From NCBI GenBank assembly GCA_905479655.1, contig CAJQNK010000005.1, positions 9,544 to 73,543 of the forward strand: a stretch of DNA of 64,000 bases, written 5' to 3'. The stretch is from an uncultured bacterium (GTDB taxonomy: Bacteria > Acidobacteriota > Thermoanaerobaculia > Multivoradales > JAHEKO01). Numbering within the stretch: position 1 is the first letter of the stretch; each line of letters begins with the position of its first letter. This document shows, in pieces, positions 748-58,347 of the stretch. Position numbers and translations under genes: made by a program. The notes below the pieces were generated by a model. The model worked only from the letters and a program-made list of their open reading frames with translations, had not been told where the DNA came from and did not search any database.

Positions 748-762
748 ACCTCCCCCTCGGGC

Positions 763-1992: not shown

Positions 1993-2128
1993 GGTGGGGA
2001 GTATCGCACCCGGAGAGGCCGCTCTTCCGCCGAGGGGGGCGTCGGCCGCCTTGTCCAAGGCGAGCGGCCCGCCGGGGCCGGCCGGTTAGAATGAAAGGAA
2101 CCAGGGGTGCGGAAGCGGATCGTTATCG
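1993..2128. promoter_or_regulatory. Divergent intergenic region between the GT4 gene (-) and the NRPS operon (+). A -10-like hexamer TAGAAT lies at 2087-2092 in a locally AT-richer stretch.
   Basis: The sequence ggttagaatgaaaggaacc lies about 35 nt upstream of the NRPS ATG. No clean -35 is present. This is a tentative call. Confidence 0.2.
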
Positions 2129-6211: not shown

Positions 6212-6212
6212 G

Positions 6213-7945: not shown

Positions 7946-8736
7946 GCGACACTCCGCACGTCTCCGTGGTGGTGCCGTTCTACGGCAGCGAGCGCCACAT
8001 CGCCGAGTGCATCGACTCGCTGCTGACCCAGGAGGACGTGGGCGGCCCCTTCGAGGTCGTCTTCGTCGACAACGGCTCGCAGGACGGATCCGCCGCCATC
8101 GTCTCCCGCTACCCCGAGCTCGTGGTCGTGCGCGAGACCACGCCGGGAGCCTACGCGGCGCGCAACGCGGGCGTGCGCGTGGCGCGCGCGCCGCTCATCG
8201 CGTTCACCGACGCCGACTGCGCCGTCGGCCGGCGGTGGCTGCGCTCGATCCGCGAGGGGATGGAGGATCCCGGAAGCGCGATCCTGCTGGGCACCTGTCT
8301 CTACCCGTACGAGGCCTCGTTGCCGCTGCGCCTCCTCGGAGCCTACGAGAACGCGAAGAGCCGGTATGTCCTCGAGCGCTGTTCGCCGGCCTACCGCTTC
8401 GCCTACGCCAACAACATGGCCGTGCGGGCCTCGGTGTTCGAGGAGGTCGGCCCGTTCCGCGAATGGCGGCGGGCCGGGGACACGGAGCTGGTGCACCGGC
8501 TGACGTCCAGGCGGCCGGACCTCCGGGTCGTCTACCGGCCCTCGATGAGGATCATCCACCGGGAGTTCCTGAACGCCCGTCACCGGCTGGGGCGGCTCAC
8601 CGTGTACACGAAGACCAACGAGAAGATCGGTACCTTCCGGGAGCTCGGCCTTCGGCAACGCTTCGGCGTCCTCGTCACCCTGCTCCGCAGCCTCCTGGCG
8701 GGCGGCCTGAAGCGGGTCAAGCGCTCGGCGTTGTAG
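7942..8736 (+). CDS. Glycosyltransferase family 2
   Basis: The N-terminus VSVVVPFYGSERHIAECIDSLL is typical of GT2 enzymes. The DxD region is FTDAD. There is an ATGA overlap with the sulfotransferase stop. Confidence 0.8.
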   Translation: MSDTPHVSVVVPFYGSERHIAECIDSLLTQEDVGGPFEVVFVDNGSQDGSAAIVSRYPELVVVRETTPGAYAARNAGVRVARAPLIAFTDADCAVGRRWLRSIREGMEDPGSAILLGTCLYPYEASLPLRLLGAYENAKSRYVLERCSPAYRFAYANNMAVRASVFEEVGPFREWRRAGDTELVHRLTSRRPDLRVVYRPSMRIIHREFLNARHRLGRLTVYTKTNEKIGTFRELGLRQRFGVLVTLLRSLLAGGLKRVKRSAL

Positions 8737-8845
8737 ACGCGGTCCTGGGCGGCTCGGCGACGACCGCGGCCGCCGGGATGGGAGGCCCGCCTCGGGGTCC
8801 ATCGACCCCCTCGCTGCGCTCGGTCGCCCAGGACGACACGCCTTG

Positions 8846-11800: not shown

Positions 11801-13078
11801 CTCCGGCAGCGCGCGGTCGTTGAAGTCGAAGTGCAGCGTGGTGCGGCCGGAGCCCGCGAAGTCGTGGACCTGGAGCCGGAGGGCGTGCACGCTGTCGCCG
11901 TGGCCCGGGTGGATCCACTCCACCTCGGTGGGAAGTCCGGCGAAGTCGCCGAAGGCCCCCGGGAAGTAGTTCAGCACCACGTTGCCGGCCGCCGCGCCGG
12001 AGGGGGCGCTCGTGCCGGGGAGCGCGTGGCGGAGGAGCCCCTTGGCCTCCTCCAGGCACTTCGCGCCGAGCGAGCGCAGGGTCTCCCCGGCCTCGATCGT
12101 GACGACGAACGGGAACATCTCGATGAACAGCCCGAGAGCCTCCTTGGCCTCCGCGCCGGGGCGTCCGGCCACCGGGGTGTCGAAGCCCAGCTCGGAGGCG
12201 CCGCTGACCCGGTGGAGCCAGCTCACGAGGAGGGCCGCGAAGAGCGCGAACCGCGACAGCTCCGGGGAGAGACTCAGGAGTCCCTCGCCCGCGGCGAGCC
12301 GTTCCACCGCGCGAGATCGCTCCTCGTCCAGCTCGAGGGTCCGACGGCTGCTCCGGGTGTCGGTGCCCTGCCTGCCGGCGGGCCCGGCCCCACGGCCGTA
12401 GAGCGAGACCCGGGAGGCGCGGGGTCGCCGGGCTTCCCAATGTTCCCGGGCCTCCCAGTGTTCCTGGGACTCGGCACGACCCCGAGGATCGGCCGCCAGG
12501 GCCGCCGCGGTCGGGTAGTACGCGGGCAGCGGCGCCGCGTCGCCGGGCTCGCCCCTCCGCAGCGCCTCGTACTCGACGCCGACCCGCCGGTAGAGGAGCT
12601 GGGTCGACCAGGCGTCGGTCACCAGGTGGTGCTGCCCCAGGTACCAGCCCGTGCGCCCCGGACCGAGCCGGAGCAGGACGCTGTCGACGAGGTCCCCGTC
12701 GAGGGGCAGAGGGCGGGCGCAGCGCTCGAGCGACCAGCGTCGCAACGCCGTCCGCGGGTCGGGCCGCGCGCCGAGGTCGACGACCGTGGTCGCGGGGGCG
12801 TGGGGCGCCAGGATCAGCCGGTCGCCACCCTCGGTGGCCACGACCCGGGTCCTGAGGGCGTCGCTGGCGTCGGCGACACGGCGCCACGCCTCCTGGAAGA
12901 GGTCGGCGCGGATCGCCCCCGGGAACAGGAAGGCGAAGGCCATCGTGTAGAGCGGACTCTCCGGGTGCAGTCGCTGGCCGAGCCAGATCGGTCTCTGGGC
13001 GTGGGTGAGCCCGAGCTCCCCCCCGTGAACCCGCGTCGCTCCCGGCGGGGAGACGGGTCGCTCCTGCCGGGTCGTCAA
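8846..13078 (-). CDS. NRPS module C-A-PCP. The A domain is interrupted between A8 and A10 by a roughly 300-aa PP-loop ATPase (AANH superfamily) domain that resembles TtcA/TtuA.
   Basis: The C domain has LGQHHLVTDAWS. The A domain has LIYTSGSTGQPKG, NEYGPTE, YRTGDRV and FLGRLDRQLKISGFRVEPGEVE. The insert follows, with CLRCALPSN...CAVCRSYD, LYSGGKDSTYAL, NVCNGCFK and STNCRI. The A domain resumes with LTRSGKVD (A10). The PCP motif is FFGLGGTSL. Confidence 0.85.
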   Translation of the reverse strand: MTTRQERPVSPPGATRVHGGELGLTHAQRPIWLGQRLHPESPLYTMAFAFLFPGAIRADLFQEAWRRVADASDALRTRVVATEGGDRLILAPHAPATTVVDLGARPDPRTALRRWSLERCARPLPLDGDLVDSVLLRLGPGRTGWYLGQHHLVTDAWSTQLLYRRVGVEYEALRRGEPGDAAPLPAYYPTAAALAADPRGRAESQEHWEAREHWEARRPRASRVSLYGRGAGPAGRQGTDTRSSRRTLELDEERSRAVERLAAGEGLLSLSPELSRFALFAALLVSWLHRVSGASELGFDTPVAGRPGAEAKEALGLFIEMFPFVVTIEAGETLRSLGAKCLEEAKGLLRHALPGTSAPSGAAAGNVVLNYFPGAFGDFAGLPTEVEWIHPGHGDSVHALRLQVHDFAGSGRTTLHFDFNDRALPEPLQRRALEHFERLLEALLDDPDRPVAEVDLLAGSDRRVLARLDASDSGPLPTRSVVERFAERAAAEPDRIALREGAREVSFGELRLRSRALAAALVARGVQPGDRVAIAGRRSISTVVAVLGALAARAAFVPLGHPVPAARRDRTLADSGARLLLAGPGAEASAAPPGVEVVSIADLVAAGRTLPFDRPTPNLRDLAYLIYTSGSTGQPKGVLVEHGGLADYLEWASRRYVRGDRLVFPLFTSPAFDLTVTSLLLPLTTGGTLVVYPEPDDAADTAVLDVARDNAVDLVKLTPSHLSLLRRIGLEGSRIRRMVVGGEDLKTSLAAAVSEQLHHRLELHNEYGPTEAVVGCVAHRYDPARDTAASVPIGLPADHVRVAVLNEALAPVPTGVPGELWISRFGLARGYHGLEALTAERFLPDPTTPGALRYRTGDRVRMTERGELEFLGRLDRQLKISGFRVEPGEVEAALLSLPGVEQCAVISHRRRAAPPAETGEAIRRCLRCALPSNHPRARLDGEGVCAVCRSYDTIKDHAQAYFRTLDDLRSLFEESAREHRPEVDCLMLYSGGKDSTYALCRLVEMGLSVYAFTLDNGFISESAKRNIRRVTSELDVPVELATTPAMNAIFRDSLARFSNVCNGCFKTIYTLSVHRARQLGIPIIVTGLSRGQMFETRLTEEMFRDGRRGADEIDAAVLAARKVYHRLPDEVSRSLDVEIFRDDRIFEEIRFVDFYRYCDVGMDELYATLRERVPWVRPADTGRSTNCRINDTGIWVHKRERGFHNYALPYSWDVRLGHKTREEALAELDDDIDEEEVRENLAVIGYDEERSGDDLDRTTLDAFYVASRELDEDELRRRLGRLLPAPVVPARLRRVDSIPLTRSGKVDEAALSLSTSGPTDRRPYRAPEGPVAEYLAGAWGRELTVEPIGMADDFFGLGGTSLAAMEVMLGLCREFDIDLPLETMFSHPILGDLARVAEDRILGDVEGRAE

Positions 13079-13091
13079 GGGTCGGGATCTC

Positions 13092-13424
13092 TCATCGTCG
13101 GCGCGCCCGCAGCACGAAGTCGGCGAGGGCCACGGCCGTGCGGAAGTTCTCGACCACGAAGTCCGCGGGCCGGATCTCGATGTCGAACTCCTCCGCGGCG
13201 AAGGTGCCGAGCCGCAGGGCGGCGACCGAATCGAGGAGGTCGGAGAGCAGGTCGTCCTCGCGCCCCACCGTCGTCCCCGAGGTCACCAGCTCGTCGCGGA
13301 CGAAGGCGAGGATCCGCCGTTCGACCTCCGCCGTTCCCGGATCCGCCGTTCCCGGATCGGGCGTCCCCGGGTCGGAGGTTGCCGGAGCGGGCGTCCCCGG
13401 ATCGGCCTTCATGTCAGTGGGCAT
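13092..13424 (-). CDS. Standalone peptidyl/acyl carrier protein
   Basis: The phosphopantetheine-site-like motif is LLDSVAALRL. The N-terminus holds low-complexity DPGT repeats. An alternative start is the ATG at 13412. Confidence 0.6.
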   Translation of the reverse strand: MPTDMKADPGTPAPATSDPGTPDPGTADPGTAEVERRILAFVRDELVTSGTTVGREDDLLSDLLDSVAALRLGTFAAEEFDIEIRPADFVVENFRTAVALADFVLRARRR

Positions 13425-14997
13425 GATGGGTCTCCTCGGGGAGGAGGCGGAAGCGCAGGGCGGTGCGGTCCACCTTCCCGGTGGGCGTTCTCGGCAGGGA
13501 GGGGAGGATCACGACCTCGGCCGGGACGGCGTAGGTCGGGAGGAGCCCGGCGAGGTCGTCCAGGATCTTCCGGGGAGAGGCCGCGGGGTCGTCCGTGACC
13601 ACCACCGCGTGGATCACGGAGCTCCCCTCGCCGTCCGGCAGGGCGATGGCGGCGGCCTCCTCGATCGGATCGAGGGAGCGCAGGGCTCTCTCGACGCCCT
13701 CGAGCTCGACGCGGTGACCCCTGACCTTGACCTGGAGGTCGGCCCGGGTCACGAAGGCGAGATTCCCGTCGTCGAGGCGGCGAACCCGGTCGCCGGTCCG
13801 GAAGTAGAGGTCGTCGAAGCCGCCGGCCGTCGGCCGCCGGACCAGCGCCCGACGGTTGGCCGCCGGGTCGCCCCAGTAGCCGGCCATGACGGTCGAGCCG
13901 CGGACCAGCAGCTCCCCGGTCTCCCCGTCCGGCAGCGGCTCCAGGTCGTCGCCCACGACGAGCGTGGCCGACGTCGAGCAGGCCGTGCCGATCGGCAGCG
14001 GCTCGGCGGGCTCGACCCCCTCCGGCAGGTGGTAGCGGGTGCAGACGTTGACCTCCGTCGAGCCGTACACGTGGCTGAACCGGGCCGCGGGGAGCTGGCG
14101 CCGGAGTCGCGCCAGGTGCTTCGCGGGGAACGTCTCGCCGGCGAAGAGCACCCAGCGCAGAGAGCTCAGGTCCCCATCCTCCAGGCCGCCGCGCAGGGAG
14201 AGGTGGACGAGGGCCGTGGGCACGGAGTACCAGACGGTGACGCGCTCCCGCTCGAGCAGGGCCGCGAGGGAGGCGGGCATCTTCAGCGTCGCGGGTGTCG
14301 GCACGACGGTCGCCGCCCCGGCGCGCGCGGCGGCGTAGAAGTCGAAGGTCGCGAAACAGGTGTGGTGCGAGGAGTGGTTGCTGAGGCGGTCGTCGGGCCG
14401 CAACGAGTACTCGTCCGCCGCCCAGTCGGCGAAGGCCAGCGCGCTGCGGTGGGTGTGGAGGATGAGCTTTGGGGTTCCGGTCGAGCCGGACGTGTGGAGG
14501 ATGTAAGCCGGGTCGAGGTCGATCGTCCCGGTCTCCGGCGGCCGGTCGGTGGCCTGCTCGGAGACCGACGACCACGGGATCGGGCGGAGAGGCAGGTCGT
14601 CCGCTTCCTCCAGGCCGACGACGCTGGAGATCTCCGGGCAACTCGCGAGCGTCTCCCGCACCGCGTCCCGCCGGCCGGGCTCGGTCACGAGATGCCGGGC
14701 GCCGGTGGCGCGCAGGATGCGCACGATCTGGTCGACCGGCGAGCCCGGGTCGATCGGCACCAGGGCGCCGCCCGAGGCGAGGGCGCCGTGGAAGGCGACG
14801 GGCACGTCGAGACCCTTGCCGAGCAGGACCGCCACGCGGTCCCGGGGTTCGAGACCGGCTCCGAGCAGCACCCGCGCCAGGCCGTGGCTCCGGCGGGCCA
14901 GCTCCCCGTAGCTCAGGGTCTCCCCGTCGCAGCGCACCGCCGGCGCCTCGGGACGGCGCATCGCCGCCTCGTCGACCAGGCGGCTCAGCAGGGTCAC
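13414..14997 (-). CDS. Standalone adenylation (AMP-binding) enzyme that loads a free-standing carrier protein
   Basis: Motifs are YILHTSGSTGTPK, YGSTE, YFRTGD, VKVRGHRVELEGVE and LPRTPTGKVDR. There is no C or PCP domain. Start assigned to GTG 14997, which forms a GTGA overlap with the upstream gene stop. Confidence 0.8.
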   Translation of the reverse strand: MTLLSRLVDEAAMRRPEAPAVRCDGETLSYGELARRSHGLARVLLGAGLEPRDRVAVLLGKGLDVPVAFHGALASGGALVPIDPGSPVDQIVRILRATGARHLVTEPGRRDAVRETLASCPEISSVVGLEEADDLPLRPIPWSSVSEQATDRPPETGTIDLDPAYILHTSGSTGTPKLILHTHRSALAFADWAADEYSLRPDDRLSNHSSHHTCFATFDFYAAARAGAATVVPTPATLKMPASLAALLERERVTVWYSVPTALVHLSLRGGLEDGDLSSLRWVLFAGETFPAKHLARLRRQLPAARFSHVYGSTEVNVCTRYHLPEGVEPAEPLPIGTACSTSATLVVGDDLEPLPDGETGELLVRGSTVMAGYWGDPAANRRALVRRPTAGGFDDLYFRTGDRVRRLDDGNLAFVTRADLQVKVRGHRVELEGVERALRSLDPIEEAAAIALPDGEGSSVIHAVVVTDDPAASPRKILDDLAGLLPTYAVPAEVVILPSLPRTPTGKVDRTALRFRLLPEETHHAH

Positions 14998-16211
14998 GGG
15001 ATCACCTTCTGCACGGCCGGAGGCAGGAGCTCGCGCAGGGGCACGTCGACGTCGAAGCCCCGCTCGACGACCCAGATGCCGGAGATCACCGCGAGTCCCA
15101 CGGCCGCTACGGGCAGGGCGATCCGCCGGTAGAGGCCCAGCCGGCGGACGAGGAAGAGCACGGGGAAGAGGACGATCGCGATCGCGGTCTGCCCCGCCTC
15201 CACGCCGAGGACGAAGGCGACCACGGAGAGGCCGAGGTGCTCGTCGAGCACGCCGAGTTGCACCAGCGAGCCGGCGAAGCCGAGCCCGTGGAACAGTCCG
15301 AGGACGAAGACGATCGCCAGGATCCGGCCCCGCGTCAGCGTCTTCCCGAGGGGAACCAGGAGGTGGATCGCAGCCAGTGTGATGGAGGCCGCGATCACCG
15401 TCTCCACGAGCGCCTCGGGGAGGCTCGCGAGGCCCAGCGCGGCTAGGAGGAGCGCCACCAGGTGGGCCGCGACCAGGGTGGCGACGACGGTCACCACGTT
15501 GCGCAGCGCCGAGCCCAGGCCGTCGAGGGGTAGCCACCGGCCGTCCTCGCGGCGCAACGCCGCGGGCAGCAGCAGCGCGACCAGGAAGAAGATGTGGTCC
15601 AGGCCCAGGAGCATGTGCTCGGCCCCCAGGCGGACGAGCGCCAGGAAGCCGCTCAGGCGTCCGGAGGAGGTCAGGTCGAGCTCCTGTCGGCGCGAGCTCG
15701 GGCCGAACACCAGCGAGAACTGGTTCTCGTTGGCGAACGTCCCCGTCGCCCAGTTGTGCTCGACGAGCAGGAAGCCCCGGTGGCTGGGCTCCTCGTCGAG
15801 CAGCACCGAGTACTCGAAGGTCAGGGTGCCGGGGACGCCGTCGAGCCCCGGGAGCTCGAACGGCAGTTGCACGAAGCCGCCCCGCGCGTTCAGGAGGTGA
15901 TGCGGCCCGAAGTCGATCTCGAGCGGGCCGCGCGGGCCGGTGATCGTGACGTGGCTCCGGTAGTACCCCTGCAAGAAGTCGATCCGCTCGTCGAGGTTCT
16001 CGGCCGTGATCCCGTCCTCGGTGCCGGCGATTCCCAGGCCGTGGTTGAGATCGGCCAGCGCGATCTCGAAGCGCCCGGCGACCGAGTCCTCGTAGATCTG
16101 AAGGTAGAGGTAGCTGTCGCCCAGGGTGTGCGCCCGGGCCCCCGCCGTGCCCAGCAGCCCGAGGGCCAGCAGCAGAAGGCCGCGCGCGGCCCTCGGGAAG
16201 AGCCGGGTCAT
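14994..16211 (-). CDS. HupE/UreJ_2-family membrane protein (metal-transporter-like). It has a signal peptide and an N-terminal periplasmic domain.
   Basis: The signal peptide is MTRLFPRAARGLLLLALGLLGTAGARA. The conserved HupE/UreJ motifs are LGLDHIFFLVALL and LGLFHGLGFAGS. A possible upstream start lies at 16271; it overlaps the ACAD stop as ATGA and adds MIGTGMMRTGMIRTGIMRTG. Confidence 0.65.
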   Translation of the reverse strand: MTRLFPRAARGLLLLALGLLGTAGARAHTLGDSYLYLQIYEDSVAGRFEIALADLNHGLGIAGTEDGITAENLDERIDFLQGYYRSHVTITGPRGPLEIDFGPHHLLNARGGFVQLPFELPGLDGVPGTLTFEYSVLLDEEPSHRGFLLVEHNWATGTFANENQFSLVFGPSSRRQELDLTSSGRLSGFLALVRLGAEHMLLGLDHIFFLVALLLPAALRREDGRWLPLDGLGSALRNVVTVVATLVAAHLVALLLAALGLASLPEALVETVIAASITLAAIHLLVPLGKTLTRGRILAIVFVLGLFHGLGFAGSLVQLGVLDEHLGLSVVAFVLGVEAGQTAIAIVLFPVLFLVRRLGLYRRIALPVAAVGLAVISGIWVVERGFDVDVPLRELLPPAVQKVIP

Positions 16212-17575: not shown

Positions 17576-18391
17576 GTGGCGCCCGAGATCCGTCTGCTGC
17601 TCGTCGACGCACTGAACCTGGTTCGCCGCGTGTACGCGGCGCAGCCGGGGAGCCACGGTCCGGGGAGGGCGCTCGAGGGGCGGGAGTCCTCGGTCCGCTC
17701 CCTGAGCAGGGCGCTCGCCGAGTGCGCTCCGACCCACGTGGCGGCCGTCTTCGACGGTGACGGGAGCACCTGGCGGCACCGGCTCTTCCCGGGCTACAAG
17801 AGCGGCCGCAGGCCCATGCCCGAGGCCCTGAGGCAAGCGCTTCCCACCTATCGCGAGGCCTTCGCGGAGGTCGGCGTCGCCGGCCTCGAGCAGCCCGCCA
17901 CCGAGGCGGACGACGTGATCGCCACCCTGGCGGTCAAGGTCGCCGCGGCCGGCGGACGGGCGACGATCCTGGCGACCGACAAGGGGTATCTGCAGCTCCT
18001 CTCCGACGCGATCGCCGTGCGCGACCACTTCCGTCGGATGGACCTGGACGCCGCGGCCGTGCGGGAGCGCTTCGGCGTCGGGCCGGGGCGGCTTCTGGAC
18101 CTCCTCGCGCTCACCGGCGACAGCACGAGCTCCATCCCCGGCGTGCCGGGTGTCGGGGCCAAGACCGCGGCGAAGCTGCTCGAGACGCACGACTCCCTCG
18201 AGGCGGTGCTCGCCGCGGCGAACTCCTCGGGCGCCGGCGACCCCCGGGCGACCGGCGCGCTCCTGACGCCGAAGCTGGCCGAGAGGCTCGTCACCCACGC
18301 CGATTCGGCGCGCCTCGCCCGGCGTCTCGTCGAGCTCGAGACCGACCTCGAGCTCGGGGTGAATCTGCGGCAGCTCCGCTGGTCTCCCTGA
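17576..18391 (+). CDS. xni: 5-prime-3-prime exonuclease / flap endonuclease (Xni/ExoIX-like)
   Basis: LLVDALNLVRRVYAA marks the N-terminal 5-3 exo domain. GDSTSSIPGVPGVGAKTAAKLL marks the H3TH domain. The start is a GTG. Confidence 0.75.
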   Translation: MAPEIRLLLVDALNLVRRVYAAQPGSHGPGRALEGRESSVRSLSRALAECAPTHVAAVFDGDGSTWRHRLFPGYKSGRRPMPEALRQALPTYREAFAEVGVAGLEQPATEADDVIATLAVKVAAAGGRATILATDKGYLQLLSDAIAVRDHFRRMDLDAAAVRERFGVGPGRLLDLLALTGDSTSSIPGVPGVGAKTAAKLLETHDSLEAVLAAANSSGAGDPRATGALLTPKLAERLVTHADSARLARRLVELETDLELGVNLRQLRWSP

Positions 18392-18433: not shown

Positions 18434-18613
18434 ATGATCACGGAGTCGGCCATCCAGATGGCCGGTACGGCGAGGGCGAGCGGCACCGGGGTCGAGGACG
18501 ACGCCTTCTCGGAGAACTTCCGATCCTACTTCGAGATGTTGGTCGCGATCGAGGGACAGCTCCTCGACTCCTACGACCGGGCACTCGAGATTCTGGACGA
18601 AGCCGCCCCCTGA
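18434..18613 (+). CDS. Small hypothetical ORF of 59 aa
   Basis: The ORF is in frame directly after the xni stop. No recognisable family was found. Its stop lies in a second copy of the CCCTGAGGGCGGGC motif. Confidence 0.2.
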   Translation: MITESAIQMAGTARASGTGVEDDAFSENFRSYFEMLVAIEGQLLDSYDRALEILDEAAP

Positions 18614-20838: not shown

Positions 20839-22266
20839 ATGAGACCGAAATCCGGCTGCTTCCGAATCGCCACCGTTCTTCCCTGCATCCTGCTCGCGGC
20901 CTGCGGCGGTGATCGGGATCGCGACGTGGGTCTCGCGCCCGTCCCCCTCGTTGAGGCTGTCCAGACCCGGGTCGGCGCGCTACCCATCGAGGAGACCCTT
21001 CCGGGGGTCGTCCGCGCCCGCAACCAGGTGACGATCCGGCCCGAGATCGACGGCCGGGTCGTCGAGGTCCTGGTGCGCAGCGGCGAGGCCGTGAGAGCGG
21101 GCCAGGTCCTGGTGCGCCTGGACGAGACGGAGGCGCGGGAGCGGCTGCGCCAGGCGGAGGCGGACGTCCGTTTCGCGGAGGCCTCGGCGGTCGCTACCCG
21201 CGCCCGGGTGGCCGAGCTCGCGGCGCGGGTCGCCCGGCAGCGGGCCCTGGCCGAGCAGGAGCTGGTGAGCGCGCAGGATCTCGAGTCGCTGGAGGCCCAG
21301 CTCGACGCCCTGCGGGCCGGCGCCGACGAGGACGTGGCGCGGGTCGAGCAGGCGCGGGCGACGGCGGAGGAGCGGCGTTCGGCGCTGGGCAAGACGGAGG
21401 TGCGGGCCCCCGTCTCCGGGCGACTGGGCGAGCGGCGGGTCGAGGTCGGGATGCGGGTCGACCCGTCCGCGGTGCTGTTCCAGGTCGGCGACCTCGACGA
21501 GCTCATCGTGGAGCTGAACCTCACGGAGGCGATGCTGGCGCGGGTGGCGACGGGGCAGCCCGCCCTGCTCTCGAGCCGGGGCGACTCCGGGGAGCCCGTT
21601 CGTGCCGAGCTCTCCCGGATCTCTCCCTTCCTGGCGGAGCAGAGCTTCACCGCGGCCGGCGAGATCGACGTGGACAACCGGGGCGGACGGCTGCGGCCCG
21701 GGATGTTCGTCGACGTCAGGATCCTGGTCGGCGAGAGCCGGCGGGCCACGCTGGTGCCGGTGGGCGCCCTGTGGGATGACCCGCGGTCGGGTCGCCGGGG
21801 GGTCTTCGTCGTCGAGGAGGTCTCGGGTCTCGACGAGGCGCCCCGCGACACGACCGACAGCCCCGAGACGCCGCGGGCGGTGGCCTTCCGACGGGTGGAG
21901 ATCCTGGCCCAGGGACGGGGCGCCGCGGGAGTCACCGGGATCGACGAGGGCGACTGGGTCGTGACGGTCGGGCAGCAGCTCCTGGGCTCCGAGCTCCGGG
22001 CGGGCCGACAGGCGGCGGCCGAGGGGCAGGACCCGGCCGGCGACGGGGCGGTGTCGGCCCGCGTCCGGCCGGTCTCGTGGCAGCGGGTCCAGGCGCTCCA
22101 GGACCTGCAGAGCGAGGATCTTCTGGAGGGCTTCCTCGAGAAGCAGCGGCGGGTCGCCGAGGCGCTGGGCGCGGAGATCCCGGAGAGCGAGGACGAGGTG
22201 GACCGGGTGATGGAGGAGGCGTCGGCCGAGGCGTCGGACGGGGCGCCGCCTCCGGAGGGGGTCTGA
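20839..22266 (+). CDS. RND efflux periplasmic adaptor (membrane-fusion protein), lipoprotein
   Basis: The lipobox is ILLAAC. It has HlyD/AcrA-type coiled-coil and beta-barrel regions. The C-terminal acidic extension is unusually long. Confidence 0.8.
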   Translation: MRPKSGCFRIATVLPCILLAACGGDRDRDVGLAPVPLVEAVQTRVGALPIEETLPGVVRARNQVTIRPEIDGRVVEVLVRSGEAVRAGQVLVRLDETEARERLRQAEADVRFAEASAVATRARVAELAARVARQRALAEQELVSAQDLESLEAQLDALRAGADEDVARVEQARATAEERRSALGKTEVRAPVSGRLGERRVEVGMRVDPSAVLFQVGDLDELIVELNLTEAMLARVATGQPALLSSRGDSGEPVRAELSRISPFLAEQSFTAAGEIDVDNRGGRLRPGMFVDVRILVGESRRATLVPVGALWDDPRSGRRGVFVVEEVSGLDEAPRDTTDSPETPRAVAFRRVEILAQGRGAAGVTGIDEGDWVVTVGQQLLGSELRAGRQAAAEGQDPAGDGAVSARVRPVSWQRVQALQDLQSEDLLEGFLEKQRRVAEALGAEIPESEDEVDRVMEEASAEASDGAPPPEGV

Positions 22267-22267
22267 G

Positions 22268-25378
<3,111 letters not shown>

Positions 25379-38198: not shown

Positions 38199-39857
38199 TC
38201 AGTTCGTTCGTCCCCCGGGCACCTGGCTGCCGTCACCCGTGAGCTGCCACTGGATGAGCGACACGGGGATGACGCCGACCGCGTCCATCTCCTCGAAGAA
38301 GCCGGGCAGGCTGAAGTCGTCGCCGAGCTGGTGCTTGCGCTCGGCGAGCAGACGCTCGATCAGGTACTTGCCCGTGACGTAGCTCGAGCCGTAGCCCGGC
38401 TGGCGCAGGTAGAGGAGCTGCTCGAAGCCGAGGAGGTCCAGGTCCGCGCGCATCCACCCGCGCGGGGTCCACTCGACGTGGAAGTCCCGCGCCTCCTGCA
38501 TCGTCTTCTCGTTGCCGTGGACGTAGAGCGATCCCAGGCCGCGCGCCGCCCTCTGCGCCAGCATGATCCAGACGATCTCCCGCACGCGCGGGTTCTCGTC
38601 GTACAGGCCGGCGTGCATCATCATCTCCTCGACCCCGGTGGCGAGACCCTCGGCCCGGCTGTCCCAGATGTTGTTGAGCAGCGGCCCCCGGCGGATCGGG
38701 CTCGGGTGGTGCTCCGCCTCCATCCGGGCCAGATCCCACCAGTGGTAGAAGTGGGTGAAGAGCGTCGTCGGGTCGTAGTGCATGCAGGTGGCGAAGAAGT
38801 TCCGCTCCTCCGGCGGCACGAAGCTCCCTCTCCGGGCCCGTAGCGCGGGCTGCATGTAGTCGCGGACCTCGAGGACCTGGTTCTTCGCCAGGAAGGCCAG
38901 GTAGCGATCGACGGCCTCGTTCGCGCGCCGCTCGTACTCTTCCGGGCTCGAGATGGCGACGAGGGGCGGCAGGTCGCGGTTGCGCTGTTCCTCGAGAGCG
39001 AGGGAGGCGTGGGCGCGGTGCAGCTCCCGGGTCAGGAGCTGGACCTCCTCCTCCCAGGTCATCGGGACCAGGTGGACGTTCTGGAGCGCCCACGTGTAGT
39101 TCTCCCGGCCGATGCCGGAGGGGCCGGTCTTCGACGGCGCCTCCGCCTCCAGCCAGGCGACGAACTCGAGCGTCGCCTCGTGGGCTTCGGCGATGGCCTG
39201 CCGCAGCTCGGCGCCCGCGCCGGCCGTCGTCTCGGCGAGCTCTTCGAGGTCGCGGACCTGGGTCCGGAGGTTGCCGATGCCCGCCACCCAGAGCTCCTCG
39301 GCGTTGCCCACCAGGTTGGCCCGCGCCTGCTTCAGGAGCGGTGCGACGACGCGGATCTCGCCGGCGAGGCGAGCCTCGTCGGCCGCCGACAGCGGGAAGG
39401 CGTAGGTCCAGAGCTCGACCACCCCGTGGTGGGTCGGCCCCTCGTGGGCCGGCGTGTCGCTCTGGGCGGTCCAGATCGAGGTGTAGTAGGCCGGGTCGCG
39501 AGCCCAGGGCTTGCGCACCCGGAGGTCGAAGTCCAGGCCGTTCATCTCGGCCCACACCAGGCGGTGATCGACCTGCTGCTCGACGGGCCAGCCGCTCGGG
39601 TCGATGGCGGCCAGGCGCTCCTGCCAGGCGGGGAGCTCGGCCGCCTTGCGCGCCATGTTCTCCGCCGTGTAGTCGGGAGCGCCGTCGCGGGTGCCGGGGC
39701 GCTCGAAGGCGCGCCACTCCTCGAACAGCCGGACGAGGTCGTCGTAGGTGGCCTCGGTGGCGACTGACGGCATCGCGACGAGGACGAGGGCAAGGGCCAG
39801 GGCGACGCGTGTCAGGAGGGCGGCGGGGCGACGGAGTCGGTCTCGGGTGGCCATCAT
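38199..39857 (-). CDS. Secreted DUF885-like protein
   Basis: The signal peptide is [33 protein letters not shown]. It is a paralogue of the DUF885 gene at 56530-58347. An AGAGAGGA ribosome-binding site lies upstream. Confidence 0.55.
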
Positions 39858-40052
39858 TCGGGTCCTCTCTTGCTGGGCTGGTCGTCGGACGGAGAATCTC
39901 TCACGCAAAGGCGCAAAGGCGCAGAGGCGCAAAGGCACGAGGACACCAAGGACGCGGCGAGCTCGGCGGGAGGGCCCCGCCGGCTGCTCTTCGCGTCTTC
40001 GGGTCTGCGCGTGAACCCGGGGTCGGACGACCCCTCGGCTCAGCTAGGTGCA

Positions 40053-42469: not shown

Positions 42470-43591
42470 TCAAAGGTGCCGTAGGTCGACGCCCAGGTGC
42501 TCCATCCGCTGATGCCATCGCTCCCGCGCGAGGCGGCGCAGGTCCTCGACCCTGTCGGCTTCGTCGACGATCTCGATTCCGAGGAGCGTCTCCACCACAT
42601 CCTCCAGGCTGACGACGCCGGCCAGCCCGCCATGCTCCTCGAAGACGGCCAGGATGTGGGCCCGTTGGTCGAGAAGCTCCTCCGCGACCCGCTCCAGGCT
42701 CATCGTCTCCGGGATGAAGCGGATCTCCCGCTTCAAGTCGAGCAGGCGGTCGTCGCCCCGTCCCTGGAGCTGGCGGGTCAGGAGGTCGGTCTTGAGCACC
42801 AGGCCCGTCACGTCGTCCCGGTTCTTGCCGTAGAGCGGGATCCTGGAGAACGGGATCTCCAACTGCTCCTCCAGGACCTCGCGCACGCTCCGGTCCTGCT
42901 GGAGGGAGAACACGACGGTGCGCGGGGTCATGATGTCCTCGGCCGTCAGCTCGCGGAAGCGGAGCATGTTGCGGAAGATCCGCGACTGGGTCTCGTCGAG
43001 GTGGCCGCCCTCGGCGCCCATCTGCGCGAGGGCCCGGAACTCGCCGCGGGAAAGCGCCTCGACCTCCTGGTTGCGGGTGATCAGCCGTGTGAGCCTCTCC
43101 GAGGCCCAGATCAGCGGATACAGGCTGAGGATCAGTCCGCGGACGAACCAGGCGGTCGGCGTGGCCAGCGGCCGCCAGTAGACCGCCCCCAGCGTCTTGG
43201 GCACGATCTCGGAGAGGAAGAGGATCAGGAGGGTCAGGACGGCCATGGAGACGCCGATCCAGCGCTCGCCGAAATAGGCCGCAGCCTCGGCTCCAGCCCC
43301 TCCCGCGCCGACGGTGTGGGCGATCGTGTTCAGGGTCAGGATGCCGGCGAGCGACCGGTCGACGTCGTCCTTGACCCGGCGCAGCCGGGCGGCCGACGGA
43401 TGGCCCTCGTGCTCCTGATGGGCCACGAAGGCCGGCGAGACGCTCAGGAGCACGGCCTCGGCCACCGAGCAGAGGAAGGAGAACAGCAGGGCCACCGAGG
43501 CGTAGAGGACCATCCGGGTGAAATGCGCCGGATCGCCGACGGTGCCGTTGCCGGAGGCGACGGGGCCGGCCGCCACGGCTACGCCGGCCAC
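42470..43591 (-). CDS. HlyC/CorC (CNNM) family transporter, DUF21-CBS-CorC_HlyC domains
   Basis: The DUF21 TM region is followed by a CBS pair and a CorC C-terminus. The true start may be the ATG at 43513 (MVLYASVALLF). Confidence 0.75.
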   Translation of the reverse strand: MAGVAVAAGPVASGNGTVGDPAHFTRMVLYASVALLFSFLCSVAEAVLLSVSPAFVAHQEHEGHPSAARLRRVKDDVDRSLAGILTLNTIAHTVGAGGAGAEAAAYFGERWIGVSMAVLTLLILFLSEIVPKTLGAVYWRPLATPTAWFVRGLILSLYPLIWASERLTRLITRNQEVEALSRGEFRALAQMGAEGGHLDETQSRIFRNMLRFRELTAEDIMTPRTVVFSLQQDRSVREVLEEQLEIPFSRIPLYGKNRDDVTGLVLKTDLLTRQLQGRGDDRLLDLKREIRFIPETMSLERVAEELLDQRAHILAVFEEHGGLAGVVSLEDVVETLLGIEIVDEADRVEDLRRLARERWHQRMEHLGVDLRHL

Positions 43592-43700
43592 CAGCAGGCC
43601 GGTGCCGAACGTGAGCAGCAGGATGCGGTTCTTCAGAGGAGTTCCTCGAGAGGGGGTCGCGGGTCGCTTCGCCGGACCGCGGTGGGCGGCCGCCGGCAGC

Positions 43701-43737
43701 GCGGGTGTGCGGGTGTGCGGGTGTGCGGGTGTGCGGG
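43701..43737. repeat. Microsatellite (GCGGGTGT)x4.6 in the divergent intergenic region
   Basis: The sequence reads gcgggtgt gcgggtgt gcgggtgt gcgggtgt gcggg. Confidence 0.7.
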
Positions 43738-43772
43738 AGCCAGGCTAGCAGGTTGTCCACTAGACTTTCGGC

Positions 43773-44324
43773 GTGTCCTGGATCCGGACGATCGACGAGG
43801 AAGACGCGGACGGCCGTCTCGCCGAGCTCTATGCCCGGGTGGTCGATAGCGCGAGCGGCCGGGTCGACGAGGTCCTCCGCGTCCACTCGCTCCACCCCGA
43901 CGGCCTCGCTGCCCACGAGGCCGTGTACCGGTCCGCGATGCGCGGCACCCGGGGCCTGCGCAAGGTGGACCGCGAGATGATCGCCCTGGTGGTCAGCAAG
44001 ATCAACGGCTGCCATTACTGAACGGCCCACCACCGACGCGGTCTGCGTCGCCTGTTGAAGGACGAGGGCCTCCTCGTCTCGGTCGAGGAGCGTCTGGACG
44101 AGGCGCCGGGCCTCGACGACCGGCGCCGGGCGATGCTGCGCTACGCGGCGAAGCTCACCCGGACGCCGGCGGCGATGGAGCGGTCGGACGTGGAGGCGCT
44201 CCGCCGCGCCGGCTTCGCGGACGAGGACGTCCTGGCGATCGCCGAGGTGACGGCCTACTACGCCTACGCCAACCGCATCGCGGACGGCCTGGGAGTCGAG
44301 GTCGAGCCGTGGTTCGAGAAGTGA
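43773..44324 (+). CDS. AhpD/carboxymuconolactone-decarboxylase-family peroxidase-related protein. It carries an in-frame UGA at 44019-44021 where the second Cys of the CxxC motif is expected, and is a candidate selenoprotein.
   Basis: Two same-frame ORFs are separated only by the TGA. Read through, the protein is …[16 protein letters not shown]…, matching the family NGCxYCxxxH motif with Sec in place of Cys. A hairpin lies immediately downstream. Confidence 0.55.
44034..44050 (+). promoter_or_regulatory. Putative bacterial SECIS hairpin, a 6-bp stem CGACGC/GCGUCG with a GGUCU loop. It begins 12 nt after the UGA.
   Basis: The stem-loop is a perfect inverted repeat, cgacgc ggtct gcgtcg. The GGUCU apical loop is the same as the E. 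coli fdhF SECIS loop, and the spacing to the UGA is similar. Confidence 0.45.
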
Positions 44325-44352
44325 CGGAGGGTCGCCCGGCGCCGCTCCCCGG

Positions 44353-47274
44353 CTACCATGGCCGTGGCCGGCTCGTCCCCAGTCCCGGGCCGTAGAGCAC
44401 CGCGTTGAGGAACATCCGTTGGCTGTCCAGCGGCCAGGCCCGGTAGGTGGGGTGGTCGACGAAAAGGATCACCTGGCCGTCGCCCACCCGCTCCCGGGTG
44501 GCGTACGCCGTGTGGGCCAGCCGGCCCGCCGCCTCGGGCCAGAGGAGGCCGCCGAGATGGAGGCGCTCCGCGGCCGGGAAGCGGGCGGCGACCTCGGCGC
44601 CGTCGTCGGCCACCAAGGCCGAGGAGGAGCCCATGAGGACGGTGATCTCGTCCGGCAGGCCCCAGGCCAGCCAGTGCTTCGGGTCGACCTCCGCCCGCAG
44701 CAGGGCGCCCCGTGGCGCGAAGTCGCGGAGCCGTCGGTCCGCGCGCTCCAGGTCCTCCGCCGCCGGGGCGGAGCGTCCGGGCGGCAGGGTGGGCTGGACC
44801 CACTCCGCCAGCGGCGTCGACTCCAAGCTCGGCGCCGGCGCGCCCGGCGCGAACGGGCGGGCGCCGGGGCCCAGGACCGGAGGGATCTCGACGCTGGCCG
44901 TCGCCCCCGCCGGGAGCGGCGTGGGAGGGCGGCCCGTGGCGCGCAGCGGTCCCGCGGCCTCGGCCGCCGCCGCCGAAGCGCCCATCATCCCCGGCGGGTG
45001 GGAGTCCAGGGCCTGACGGCGAAGGTGGGTCGAGGTCAGCCCGGTCGCCTTGTCGGCCAGGAACAGGGCGCCGCCGTCGAGGCCGATGGCGGTGCCGCCG
45101 GCCTCGATCCAGGCCTTGAGCTTCGCGACGCCCGCCTCGCCCAGCGCCTGGGCCCAGGCTCCGCCGCCGCCGAAGCTCGGCGGGAAGACGAGGACGTCGT
45201 AGCGCTCGAGCTCGACCCGGGAGAACCACGCTGTGTCGAGGCTGTTGAAGCGCAGGCCGGCACGCTGGTCCAGGACGAACCAGACCGAGCCGTAGTCCGA
45301 CGGGGAGGCGGGCACCCCGGCCAGCACGCCGACGCGGGGGGAGACGAGGGATCGGAAGTGGCTACCGCCCAGATCGGGGCCCTCCTCGGCGAGGGCCGTG
45401 CCCGTCGACCGGAAGGCGACCGACCAGCGCTCAGCGACCGCGCGCAGGCGATCCCGCAGGTCGTCCGGGTTGCCCTCCGTCGGTATGAGGAGGGCGCCCG
45501 GTTCGCCCTCGAAGCCGGCCACCCGGAAGGCGCGGTCGGCCACCTGGATGCGCAGGCCCTGTTGCAGGAGCTCGGCCAGGGCAGCCATGGCGGAGTCGCC
45601 GTTCCCGTCCAGGAGGTAGCCGTAGGCCGGACCGTCGCCGGTTTCCGTGACCGGCTCAGCGGGTACCGGCTCGGCGGCCGGCTCGGCGCTCCAGGGACCG
45701 GCCGGTCGCTGGGTCGTCCACAGCGCCTCGACCCCGTGCAGCAGCGGCAGGGACCAGGCGTTGACGTCGTAGCCGCGCGATCCCTCCCCGCTCTCGATCG
45801 ACTCCCGTTCCGCCTGCAGGGCGTCGGCGGCCATGGGGACGTGGGGGTCGAGCAGCACGCTCGCGAGGGGCGAGAGCGGCTGGTCCAGCGGCACCATCCA
45901 CGTGCCGGCCGGCAGCTCGCGGCCGGCCGGCACGCCGGTCCGCGCGTCGCGGGCGCCCGCCACCGTGACCGCCCCGGTCGCCCGCAGCAGCTCGATCCCC
46001 TGGTCGCGCAGCAGCGCCGCGAGCGCGTCCGTGCGCTTCGGCCGCTCCCCCGGGGGCAGCAGCCACGCCCGGGCCGGGCCCTTCGGCTCGGCTACGGCGC
46101 GTCGCCGGGCCGCCACGAAGTCGGCGAGCAGCTCCGGCCGGCCGGCCGCCAGGGTCTCCAGGTTGGCCAGGGAACTCGTCACCTGGTGCTCGACGGCCTC
46201 GGCGTAGGTCCGCACGGTTCCGTCCTCGCGACGCACGAGCGTGCCGGCCGTTCCCGACATCTCGTACAGGATGCCGATGGCACCCAGATAGGCGGCCCAG
46301 GACGAGCCGTAGCCGGGAAAGAACTCCTCGTTCCACTCCCGCGTGTAGTAGCCGTAGCCGCGGCCGTCCAGCGCGACGGCCTGGTCGGAGGCGAAGTGTC
46401 CCCACCAGTCGGCGGTGTAGTCGGGCAGGAGGGGGTTGAACGGCGCCCGCGGCGGCGACAGGAGGTAGGTGTCGTTGTCGCCCATCTCGTGGCTGTCGAC
46501 GACCAGCTGGGGGTGCCAACCCGCGATCACGTGGGAGCGCCAGCTCTCCGGGTGGACCATGGTGAACCAGTCCCGGTTGAGATCGAAGAGGTAGTGGTTG
46601 CCCCGGCCCCAGGGCCACACCGTGGTGTGGGAGAGGTCGTCCTGGTCGGGGTTGGCGAGCGCGTGGGCGAAGGAGCGGGTCTGGGCCAGGTAGCGGTCGC
46701 GCCCATCCGGGTTCTCCATCGGGTCGATCAGTACGACCAGCTCCTCACGCAGCATCTTCGCTCGCTCGTCTTCGCCGGCCACCAGCCAGTAGGCCAGCGC
46801 CGCCGCGGCGTCCACCGAGGAGAGCTCGTCGCCGTGGATGCCGTAGGCCATCCACGCCACCGCCTTGGCCCCTTCGAGAGCCGAGGCATCCTCGGAGGCG
46901 CTCCGTCCCCGTGGGTCCATCCTTCGTGCGTGGTCCTGCCGGAAGTCGTCGAGGCCGGCGACCGTCGCCTCGTCGCTCACCACGAAGGCCACCAGCTCCC
47001 GACCCTCCCAGGTCTTCGCGTAGGGCTCCATGGCCGCTCGCGGCGAGGCGTCGGCCAGCGCGCGCAGGTAGCCCATGAGCTCGGCGTGACGGAGAGGCCG
47101 GCTTCCGGGCACCACCCCCGTGACCTCCTCCTGGGTGGGGATCGCCGGGTCGAACGTCGCCCAGGGAAAGAGCTCGTGAGGGCCCTTGCCGGGGATCGTG
47201 CCGAAGGTCTCGGCGAGGGCGGGGATGGCGAGCAGCAGCAGCGCCAGCGAGGCGACGCGGGAGTGTCGGCTCAT
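44353..47274 (-). CDS. Secreted zinc carboxypeptidase, peptidase family M14, with a large C-terminal extension
   Basis: The signal peptide is [21 protein letters not shown]. The M14 HxxE zinc motif is in GIHGDELSS. An AGGAGGAAGAG ribosome-binding site lies upstream. The N-terminal 139 codons of the ORF-track ORF are overrun. Confidence 0.8.
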
Positions 47275-47469
47275 CTCTTCCTCCTGTTGTGGGGCCGTTC
47301 GCCCGGGGGGCGTTCGAAGGATCGAGAGTACCACCGGCGAGCGCCCCGCCGCCGACACTTCCCCTCGTTGCCGCTCGCGGGACGGGGTGGTAGCTTTCGC
47401 GCTGAGCCCATCGGTCGACGGCCCCGCGGTCCCGCGGTCGCCGGTACGCTCGAGAGCCTGGGAGCCGTC

Positions 47470-47964
47470 ATGAGCGAGAGCGTCAACCCCCGCGTCGCCG
47501 TCATCATGGGCAGCGCCTCGGACTGGCCCACGATGCGCGGCGCCGTCGACGTCCTGGAGCGCTTCGGGGTGCCTCACGAGGCTCAGATCGTCTCGGCGCA
47601 CCGCACCCCCGAGCGTCTGCGCGAGTTCGCGCGCTCGGCGGCCGACCGCGGCCTCGAGGCGATCATCGCCGGAGCCGGGGGCGCCGCGCATCTGCCCGGG
47701 ATGGTGGCCGCTTGGACGACCCTGCCGGTCTTCGGCGTGCCGGTGAAGAGCCGGGCGCTCTCCGGCATGGACTCCCTGCTGTCGATCGTCCAGATGCCCT
47801 ACGGCGTGCCGGTGGGGACGCTGGCCATCGGCGAGTCGGGGGCGAAGAACGCGGCGTTGCTGGCCGTCCGGACGCTGGCGGTGGGGGATGGCGAGCTGCG
47901 CGACGCGCTCGAGGCGTTCGCCCGGGTGCAGGCGGCGAAGGCCCTGGAGCCGGAGCTGGAGTGA
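47470..47964 (+). CDS. purE: N5-carboxyaminoimidazole ribonucleotide mutase
   Basis: It has full-length PurE similarity, including [12 protein letters not shown] and [14 protein letters not shown]. Confidence 0.9.
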
Positions 47965-56529: not shown

Positions 56530-58347
56530 ATGAGTCGATGGAAGAGAGGCACCCTGATCACGCTGACGCTGGTCCTGCTGGCCGGGGCCGGTTTCGCGAT
56601 CCCGACGATCTGGGGCAAGCCGTGGTCCATCGACCACTTCTTCTCCCGGGTGTTCGTGCGCTTCGCCCTGCGCCACCCCATGATGCTCTCGGGCATGCGG
56701 CTCCTGGAGCCCATGGGCCTCACCTTCCACAACGACGACCTGGACGACTTCTCCCCCGAGTTCCAGGCCATGGAGGCCGACTGGCTGGAGGGTGAGCTCG
56801 ACACGCTCCGCCGCTGGGACCGCGCCTCCCTCGATCCCGACACGGCCCTCTCCTACGACATCCTCGAGTGGTTCCTGGCCGACCAGGCGGCGGGCAACCG
56901 CTGGCCCGACCACAACTACCCGGTGAACCAGCTCGGGGGTCTCCAGAGCGGGCTGCCGGACTTCATGATCAACACCCACTACCTCGAGTCGGAGGAGGAC
57001 GCGGAGGACTACGTCGCCCGCGTCGGGCAGTTCGAGCGGTCCTTCGCCCAGGTGACGAGGGGCCTCGTCCGGCGGGAGGAGAAGGGGATCGTGCCGCCGC
57101 GTTTCGTCATCGACCACGTGATCGAGGAGATGCGCGGCCTGATCGAGCCGCCGACCGAGGAGATGGTGCTCTACACCCACTTCACGGAGACGATCGCGGA
57201 GATCGAGGGTCTCGGCCGGGACCGGCAGGAAGAGCTGGCGGCGGAGCTCCGGGAGGAGGTCGAGGGCTCCGTGGTTCCCGCGTACGAGCGTCTCATCGCG
57301 TTCTTCGAGCGTCAGCGCGAGATCGCCACCACCGATGACGGCGTCTGGAAGCTGCCGGACGGCGCCGAGTTCTACGCCTGGACCCTGCGTCACCACACGA
57401 CCACCGACTTGACGCCCGACCAGATCCATCGCATCGGTCTGTCGGAGGTGGAGCGGATCCAGGCCGAGATGCGTCGCATCCTCGCGGCGGAGGGCTACCC
57501 GACGGACGACCTGGCGGCGACGATGAACGGTCTCAACGAGGAGGCGCGGTTCCTCTATCCCGACAGCGACGACGGTCGGGCCGCCATCATCGCGGATTTT
57601 CAGGCCATCATCGACGAGGTCGACGCCGGGATCGACCCGCTGTTCGACGTGCAACCCGAGAGCGGCGCCACCGTGAAGCGCGTGCCGGAGTTCCGCCAGG
57701 CGACGGCGCCGGGCGCCTACTACGATGCGCCGCCGTTCGACGGCTCGAAGCCGGGGACCTTCTACATCAACCTGCGCGACGTCAAGGAGGTCCCGAAGTT
57801 CGGGATGCGCACGTTGGCCTACCACGAGGCCATTCCCGGGCACCACTTCCAGATCGCCGTCGCGCAGGAGCTCCAGGGCGTCCCCTTCTTCCGCCGGATC
57901 ATCCCGTTCACCTCGTACTCCGAGGGCTGGGCCCTCTACGCCGAGCAGCTCGCGGCGGAGAACGGCTTCCAGGAGGACCCCTACGACCGTCTGGGGTACC
58001 TCACCGCCCAGCTCTTCCGCGCCGTCCGCCTCGTGGTCGACACCGGCATCCATTCCCGTCGCTGGACGCGGGAGGCGGCGATCGAGTACATGTTGGCCAA
58101 CACCGGCATGCCCGCCGGCGACGTCGTGGCGGAGATCGAGCGCTACATCGTCAACCCGGGCCAGGCCTGCGCCTACATGGTCGGCCAGCTCCAGATCCTC
58201 AAGCTCCGCACCCTCGCGCAACAGGCCCTCGGGCCGGAGTCCGACCTGGCCGCCTTCCACGACGTGGTGCTGACCCACGGCGCGGTGCCGCTCGAGATCC
58301 TGGAGCGGCTGGTCGACGAGTGGATCGCGGAGCAGAGGTCCGGCTAG
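56530..58347 (+). CDS. DUF885-family protein (putative metallopeptidase-like; HExxPGHH motif), exported
   Basis: It has an N-terminal signal/anchor. The characteristic DUF885 motif HEAIPGHHFQ is present. Confidence 0.8.
   Translation: MSRWKRGTLITLTLVLLAGAGFAIPTIWGKPWSIDHFFSRVFVRFALRHPMMLSGMRLLEPMGLTFHNDDLDDFSPEFQAMEADWLEGELDTLRRWDRASLDPDTALSYDILEWFLADQAAGNRWPDHNYPVNQLGGLQSGLPDFMINTHYLESEEDAEDYVARVGQFERSFAQVTRGLVRREEKGIVPPRFVIDHVIEEMRGLIEPPTEEMVLYTHFTETIAEIEGLGRDRQEELAAELREEVEGSVVPAYERLIAFFERQREIATTDDGVWKLPDGAEFYAWTLRHHTTTDLTPDQIHRIGLSEVERIQAEMRRILAAEGYPTDDLAATMNGLNEEARFLYPDSDDGRAAIIADFQAIIDEVDAGIDPLFDVQPESGATVKRVPEFRQATAPGAYYDAPPFDGSKPGTFYINLRDVKEVPKFGMRTLAYHEAIPGHHFQIAVAQELQGVPFFRRIIPFTSYSEGWALYAEQLAAENGFQEDPYDRLGYLTAQLFRAVRLVVDTGIHSRRWTREAAIEYMLANTGMPAGDVVAEIERYIVNPGQACAYMVGQLQILKLRTLAQQALGPESDLAAFHDVVLTHGAVPLEILERLVDEWIAEQRSG

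Follow-up and report, generated by a model that had tools for sequence, protein, structure and literature searches.

The stretch of DNA analyzed here (hereafter the window) comprises 64,000 nucleotides of contig CAJQNK010000005.1 (assembly GCA_905479655.1, positions 9,544 to 73,543 of the forward strand) from an uncultured member of the Acidobacteriota, and it carries a candidate selenoprotein gene of the AhpD-like family at positions 43773-44324. The reading frame of this gene opens at a GTG and runs to the TGA at 44322-44324 with a sole interruption, a second TGA at 44019-44021, so that the codon tally is 82 + 1 + 100 = 183. The initial annotation had described two same-frame open reading frames (ORFs) parted solely by the internal TGA, together with a 183-residue AhpD-like protein obtained by reading through it. 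The coordinates and the frame agree with the former, the listed ORF start at 44055 being the first TTG of a frame already open since 44022, and the latter is matched by a full-length product of the TIGR01926 family with a predicted CMD fold. The N-terminus agrees with homologues starting MAWIKVIDD, and the composition past the internal TGA is of the coding type (G+C at third codon positions, GC3, of 0.92). The region 43773-44324 is a single gene.

The public record that contains the window (ENA ERZ23498415, SOLA22-1 scaffold_87, a metagenome assembly taken from its sample name to be marine) splits the gene into calls of 82 and 89 residues, and homologues of the gene have fared similarly. Among the best 120 protein-database matches, 77 are C-terminal fragments of ~100 residues that start directly after the TGA, some of them under the NCBI name 'peroxidase-related enzyme', while approximately 12 'full-length' matches (P0001-P0003 and others) show W at the proposed selenocysteine (Sec) site. 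The DNA underlying P0001 was checked and has a TGA at the site that was translated as W, and the W in these entries is an artefact of gene calling on short contigs. Both the splitting and the W translation are a systematic mis-annotation of the AhpD-like family. When a gene is split at the Sec codon, or its UGA is read as Trp, catalogues lose the residue at the active site as well as half of the protein.

Predicted fold and active site

Profile and homology queries were made with the read-through protein in which U was replaced by C. This protein scores 136 bits against the NCBIfam model TIGR01926 ('peroxidase-related enzyme'; cutoff 81.8), with residues 2-179 covering profile positions 1-177 of 178, and 50.8 bits against the Pfam CMD model (cutoff 23). 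The structures PDB 2pfx and 3c1l are matched with E values of ~8e-27 over about 155 residues, and an all-helical AhpD/CMD fold is predicted for the read-through protein from these similarities. In PDB 2pfx, 3c1l, 6k40, 2prr and 2oyo the C-x-x-C motif is aligned onto C80-H-Y-U83; at these columns 2pfx and 3c1l read CFYC and CYYC, respectively, and the Cys homologues read NDCHYC.

The active-site pattern of the gene product is E68...C80-H-Y82-U83-x3-H87. Across 25 aligned Cys-form homologues, E68, C80, Y82 and C83 never vary, and conservation of H87 is 90% or higher. The proton relay consists of Glu118, Cys130, His132, Cys133 and His137 in Mycobacterium tuberculosis AhpD and of Glu36, Cys48, Tyr50, Cys51 and His55 in Pseudomonas aeruginosa PA0269 (PMC3141380), and the spacing E-x11-C-x-[H/Y]-C-x3-H is common to both proteins and the one described here. 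Because the five relay residues share an identical spacing and are conserved, the UGA falls exactly at the second catalytic Cys, where the initial annotation had placed it; the alignment with Cys-containing homologues, in which the UGA column is the second Cys of CxxC, the solved structures and the relay spacing all agree on this position. By analogy, the predicted Sec83 would take the place of the residue that corresponds to Cys133 in M. tuberculosis AhpD, the attacking nucleophile of that enzyme.

While PA0269 (PDB 2o4d) is a sequence homologue (E = 4e-6), the gene described here differs from both it and M. tuberculosis AhpD in the predicted Sec at the second Cys position and in that neither ahpC nor a peroxiredoxin gene lies next to it in the window. 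Against the canonical AhpD model TIGR00777 the protein scores 23.3 bits only (cutoff 191.95); it would appear to be AhpD-like in its working, yet it lies outside of the canonical AhpD subfamily. Its function, as that of the TIGR01926 family, has to be drawn from M. tuberculosis AhpD and PA0269, and on that basis the product is most likely a selenol/thiol oxidoreductase in peroxide or thiol-redox defence.

Conservation of the UGA and of the downstream hairpin

Relatives of the gene were collected through a scan of one-genome-per-species contigs, which yielded 80 loci, mostly from metagenome-assembled genomes (MAGs) of Acidimicrobiia, Planctomycetota and Acidobacteriota and including two UGA-carrying Thermoanaerobaculia MAGs (L048 and L070). 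The encoded proteins are 53-70% identical to the window copy over the whole length and 54-70% identical on both sides of the UGA (tblastn matches extend from residue 1 to ~181), with the closest genomic relative at 70% identity. A TGA occupies the homologous codon in all 80 loci, in 78 as judged by a strict motif and in two (L049 and L060) as judged separately.

A perfect 6-bp stem with a 5-nt loop, CGACGC-GGTCT-GCGTCG, begins 12 nt past the internal TGA, and its bases double as the codons R88-R89-G90-L91-R92-R93. The exact consensus, CGNCGCGGTCTGCGNCG, has one occurrence in the window (44034-44050), and thus none follows the TGA at 44322-44324. In 79 aligned sequences the stem conforms to CGNCGC/GCGNCG, with variants that include CGCCGC...GCGGCG and CGGCGT...ACGCCG, and the loop is GGTCT in 76. 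No more than two of the pairs link one wobble position to another, and covariation is seen at each of them: pair 18:30 is GC in 52 sequences, GU in 10, AU in 7 and CG in 4, and pair 21:27 is CG in 73, UA in 2 and UG in 2. Overall 95% of the cells are paired and the observed covariation score was reached by none of 500 shuffles; with the partner slid by a single column, pairing falls to about 19%. Synonymous variation is suppressed over the same bases. At R89, G90 and L91 the entropy of the third codon position amounts to 0.34, 0.27 and 0.17 bit, respectively, compared to a mean of 1.67 and a minimum of 1.08 bit for 58 other conserved columns (amino acids with at least four codons), and it is back to 1.77 bit at the first base outside of the stem (codon 93). 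Gly90 is encoded by GGT in 76 of the 79 sequences, though these genes (G+C 48-71%) use GGC more often than any other Gly codon. The covariation and the suppressed synonymous variation together indicate that the hairpin is under selection as an RNA structure.

The dimensions of the hairpin are those expected of a bacterial selenocysteine insertion sequence (SECIS). The bSECIS model specifies a loop of 3-9 nt with G in its first two positions, an upper stem of 4-16 bp, a distance of 16-37 nt from the UGA to the loop and a minimum free energy of -7.5 kcal/mol or lower (PMC13188914). The window hairpin falls within each of these limits, with its 5-nt loop, 6-bp stem, GG, 18 nt between the UGA and the loop (44022-44039) and, for the hairpin alone, -8.6 kcal/mol; among the relatives the bare 17-nt hairpin reaches -7.5 kcal/mol or lower in 69 of 79. 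The SECIS-like hairpin that had been noted 12 nt past the UGA therefore holds up in its coordinates, its covariation and its agreement with the model. In one relative the tRNA finder ARAGORN places a 92-nt 'tRNA-Arg(gcg)' over the SECIS region (L073:1860-1951, within the AhpD-like coding sequence and ~25 nt past the Sec-UGA), which is almost certainly a false positive arising from G+C-rich hairpins; other than this call, no tRNA was found by ARAGORN in the window, in L084 or near the relatives.

Three further loci carry a different codon at the site. Two of these are Cys forms with a TGC: L083:3001-3552 retains an intact hairpin (CGGCGC-GGTCT-GCGTCG), and L082:3001-3666 has a decayed one (CGGCGC-GGATT-GCAGCG). 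Both derive from one sample (proteins P0010 and P0008) with similar synteny (ApbE, sulfate transporter, sigma-70) and look like Sec-to-Cys conversions with a fossil SECIS, which would mean that some lineages are giving up Sec. The third, L087:501-1049 (P0004; GCA_024275815.1, JAJRYI010000263.1), has a TTA (Leu) at the Sec codon followed by a perfect hairpin, CGTCGC-GGTCT-GCGACG, that supplies an extra U-A variant of the covarying pair 18:30; the TTA, which differs from TGA at a single base, stems either from an assembly error or from a change that inactivates the gene. Judged by their codons and hairpins, the three loci look like stages of Sec loss.

Decoding of the UGA and rival explanations

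The region 43773-44324 can be assigned with high confidence to a 183-residue AhpD-like selenoprotein (TIGR01926, CMD fold) in which the UGA is decoded as Sec by way of the SECIS hairpin. The steps of this decoding are modelled on the established bacterial pathway as summarised in PMC13188914. The mRNA would fold into the 6-bp hairpin with its GGUCU loop, starting 12 nt past the UGA, and the hairpin would act as a bacterial SECIS. SelB-GTP-Sec-tRNA(Sec) would bind the apical part of the hairpin and deliver Sec once the UGA is in the ribosomal A site, and translation would then run on to the real stop at 44322. In the finished protein, C80 and U83 may form a selenylsulfide couple within the AhpD proton relay (E68, Y82 and H87) that serves peroxide or thiol-disulfide chemistry.

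The folding energy of the 66-nt context is ordinary relative to shuffled sequences (z = -0.7, in a sequence of 72% G+C), and the thermodynamics of the one sequence was set aside as evidence; a single hairpin is thus unconvincing by itself, and it is the comparison among relatives that provides the evidence against chance. Several observations weigh against the assignment. An Rfam search of 43700-44400 at E values up to 10 returned chance matches elsewhere and none at the hairpin (44019-44060). No selA, selB, selD or tRNA-Sec was found in the window and ~17 kb of adjoining sequence, a search that combined Pfam scans of 30 window ORFs with ORF listings of the remaining gaps and reached the contig ends through the edge genes; as this covers ~81 kb of a 122,912-bp contig and a genome of several Mb is otherwise unseen, the absence is weak evidence. 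Lastly, the hairpin is without the bulged U in the upper stem of Escherichia coli fdhF that is required by E. coli SelB.

The comparison with fdhF merits some detail, as the initial annotation had equated the loop with that of the E. coli fdhF SECIS. The sequence TGACACGGCCCATCGGTTGCAGGTCTGCACC maps to fdhF in 5419 of the 5426 E. coli genomes. As in the window gene, the fdhF hairpin lies inside the coding sequence just past the UGA, the GGUCU starts 21 nt after the U of the UGA, and GGTCTGC occupies nt 22-28 from the T of the TGA in the same reading frame (Gly-Leu codons). The fdhF element is usually drawn as (A)GGUC(U), with an A-U pair closing a GGUC loop, and its lower stem is long and extends as far as the UGA. 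By contrast, the AhpD-like hairpin is a plain G+C-rich stem of 6 bp with a 5-nt loop, it has no conserved lower stem (outer positions are paired in at most 48% of the sequences), and the host protein is unrelated. With the bulged U absent, what matches is GGUCUGC and its spacing to the UGA; to this extent the equation holds, and it does not extend to the whole element with its bulge and lower stem.

Explanations that place the anomaly in the TGA codon itself fare poorly. A pseudogene, in which a nonsense mutation has truncated an ordinary Cys-containing AhpD-like gene, would account for the two fragments in the public record (82 and 89 aa) and for a codon that does change in evolution (TTA in L087 and TGC in others). 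Yet the same codon is TGA in 80 of 80 loci from several phyla with both halves of the protein conserved, the composition past the TGA is of the coding type, and a selected RNA hairpin follows the codon, such that the pseudogene is effectively refuted by the comparative data and its probability is negligible. Similarly, the source is a metagenome assembly and one base parts TGA from TGC or TGT, which speaks for a sequencing or assembly error at a true Cys codon, but the same error would need to recur in 80 independent assemblies, and two contigs carry the 82-residue N-terminal piece ending at the internal TGA. An error is rejected as exceedingly improbable, and the retention of the TGA in every locus rules out a private nonsense mutation and a sequencing error alike. 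The database entries with W at the codon could instead reflect a reassignment (genetic code 4 or 25) by which Trp or Gly is inserted at every TGA. In the window, however, 19 of 26 Pfam-supported genes end at a TGA, as does the AhpD-like gene itself at the point where its homologues end, and therefore the codon is not reassigned; the W is attributable to gene calling, the DNA of P0001 reading TGA, and either W or G would be implausible at a catalytic Cys position. There is hardly any chance that a reassignment applies, and this too is rejected.

Two further explanations accept the TGA as a stop. The TTG at 44055 could start an 89-residue product, in which case the locus would encode two small proteins and the hairpin, instead of being a SECIS, would regulate translation or transcription. 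A single domain spans the junction, though: the TIGR01926 profile and the solved structures cross it, two proteins would sever the catalytic helix after C80 and before H87, the region yielded no terminator-like site, and in relatives the fragment calls begin at whichever codon follows the TGA. The two-gene model is rejected, with a likelihood close to nil. Alternatively, the organism may have lost its Sec machinery and kept the UGA and SECIS as a relic, with a truncated peptide of 82 residues as the only product. The lack of sel genes in ~81 kb of the 123-kb contig and the Sec-to-Cys conversions with fossil or decaying hairpins among relatives are in its favour. Against it, all six pairs of the stem and the consensus loop are present in this gene, the downstream half is intact without further stops, and lineages that abandon Sec should convert the codon to Cys, as in L082 and L083; a relic is therefore considered very unlikely, and a Sec-decoding gene remains the preferred assignment.

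A gene of this type is already known. An AhpD-like protein (COG2128, CxxU) was among the new selenoprotein families of the Sargasso Sea in 2005, when Zhang, Fomenko & Gladyshev described 27 sequences of it along with a SECIS prediction (PMC1088965), 'AhpD-like 1' was the fourth most abundant selenoprotein family in the Global Ocean Sampling (GOS) data, with 299 sequences in 37 samples (PMC2398784), and a 2026 review lists 'AhpD-like protein, TIGR01926, CxxU' (PMC13188914). These sources substantiate the earlier statement that AhpD-like proteins are a recognised bacterial selenoprotein family. The window gene has every testable defining feature of that family, with which it shares TIGR01926, a CxxU motif with Sec second, a SECIS just 3' of the UGA and a marine metagenomic origin; there is no difference of substance, the window copy coming from a sequence of 72% G+C, apparently of a marine member of the Thermoanaerobaculia. 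The family has thus been in the literature since 2005, together with its CxxU motif and its SECIS. Two other models are related in part. NF041238 ('alkylhydroperoxidase-related (seleno)protein, CFYUT') also has Sec second in its motif, C-F-Y-U-T compared to C-H-Y-U-T here, but it is matched at 54.8 bits against a cutoff of 175 and over profile positions 151-338 of 357 only, and its proteins are about twice as long. NF053654 ('YciW-related (seleno)protein') is AhpD-related with Sec at the second position of a CxxC-type motif, but is matched at 17.9 bits against a cutoff of 310. By these scores the two are sister selenoprotein families and not the AhpD-like family of this gene.

Genomic setting and implications

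The adenosylhomocysteinase encoded in the window shares 82-84% identity with proteins from Thermoanaerobaculia MAGs, and on this single gene a marine Acidobacteriota host seems indicated. The AhpD-like gene stands alone between a divergent and a convergent neighbour (Table 1). Across 81 loci no gene family was found among the neighbours in more than 19, and consequently no partner gene can be read from synteny. The 181-bp intergenic region that separates the AhpD-like gene from the CNNM/CBS gene contains a perfect 8-nt tandem repeat (GCGGGTGT x 4.6) at 43701-43737, 36 nt ahead of the GTG codon; the same region yielded no sigma-70-like promoter.

Table 1. Coordinates of the AhpD-like gene, its elements and other genes of the window
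Feature	Position	Strand	Details
AhpD-like selenoprotein coding sequence (predicted), complete	43773-44324	+	183 codons including predicted Sec83; GTG start, TGA stop 44322-44324
AhpD-type proton-relay segment (predicted)	43974-44033	+	E68 43974-43976; C80 44010-44012; Y82 44016-44018; U83 44019-44021; H87 44031-44033
In-frame UGA, predicted Sec codon (Sec83)	44019-44021	+	Second position of C-x-x-C/U motif; TGA at homologous codon in 80/80 loci
SECIS hairpin (predicted)	44034-44050	+	Stem 44034-44039/44045-44050 (6 bp); loop GGUCU 44040-44044
Genuine stop, also TGA	44322-44324	+	Protein end coincides with homologue end; from frame and homologue ends
CNNM/CBS transporter gene	42470-43591	-	Upstream, divergent from AhpD-like gene
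M14 carboxypeptidase-like (peptidase) gene	44353-47691	-	Downstream, convergent with AhpD-like gene; about 970-1100 residues
Non-ribosomal peptide synthetase (NRPS) C-A-T module with thioesterase	2129-6211	+	
NRPS C-A-T module	8846-13282	-	
Stand-alone adenylation enzyme ORF of NRPS cluster	13414-15537	-	

A scan of the window for other in-frame TGAs with coding-type flanks identified a further two, at 18389 and 25376. The first ends a 5'-3' exonuclease gene (17576-18391), downstream of which an ORF of 59 codons (18434-18613) with coding-like GC3 lies in frame; this TGA has neither a Cys-type context nor a SECIS-like hairpin, was rejected as a Sec site and is taken as a coincidence. The second is the stop of an AcrB-type transporter gene (22211-25378), without a Cys-type context, and was likewise set aside. 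Approximately 6 kb past the window end lies an OsmC-family gene of 150 aa (L084:3341-3793). OsmC-like proteins are another known selenoprotein family, and this copy is presumably the Cys form, as it was called full length. At the other end, an NRPS cluster occupies positions 1-15540 of the window and L085:1-10000, and in addition to the modules of Table 1 it has glycosyltransferases, methyltransferases, a sulfotransferase and a polysaccharide-type flippase. The window also encodes two DUF885 proteins, at 38199-40043 (-) and 56530-58347 (+), of which one matches strongly, at 595 bits, and the other is divergent, at 73 bits.

The 17-nt SECIS is nearly base-identical across genomes labelled Actinomycetota, Planctomycetota and Acidobacteriota, with the same loop, spacing and frame, and it simultaneously encodes the invariant peptide RRGLRR. 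The comparison of 80 genomes thereby offers an unusually clean case of double constraint, on the protein (RRGLRR) and on the RNA (SECIS). Combined with the switches to Cys and Leu, the identity of the element across phyla raises the tentative idea that the gene and its built-in SECIS could travel between phyla as a portable Sec module, the family then being a live record of repeated Sec gain and loss; this is a possibility worth stating, though the less likely outcome. As the GGUCUGC sits at the fdhF distance, the element might also work with heterologous SelB proteins. The main value of the finding is the correction of an annotation, through which a split gene call is mended, and it marks the source bacterium as a likely selenium user.

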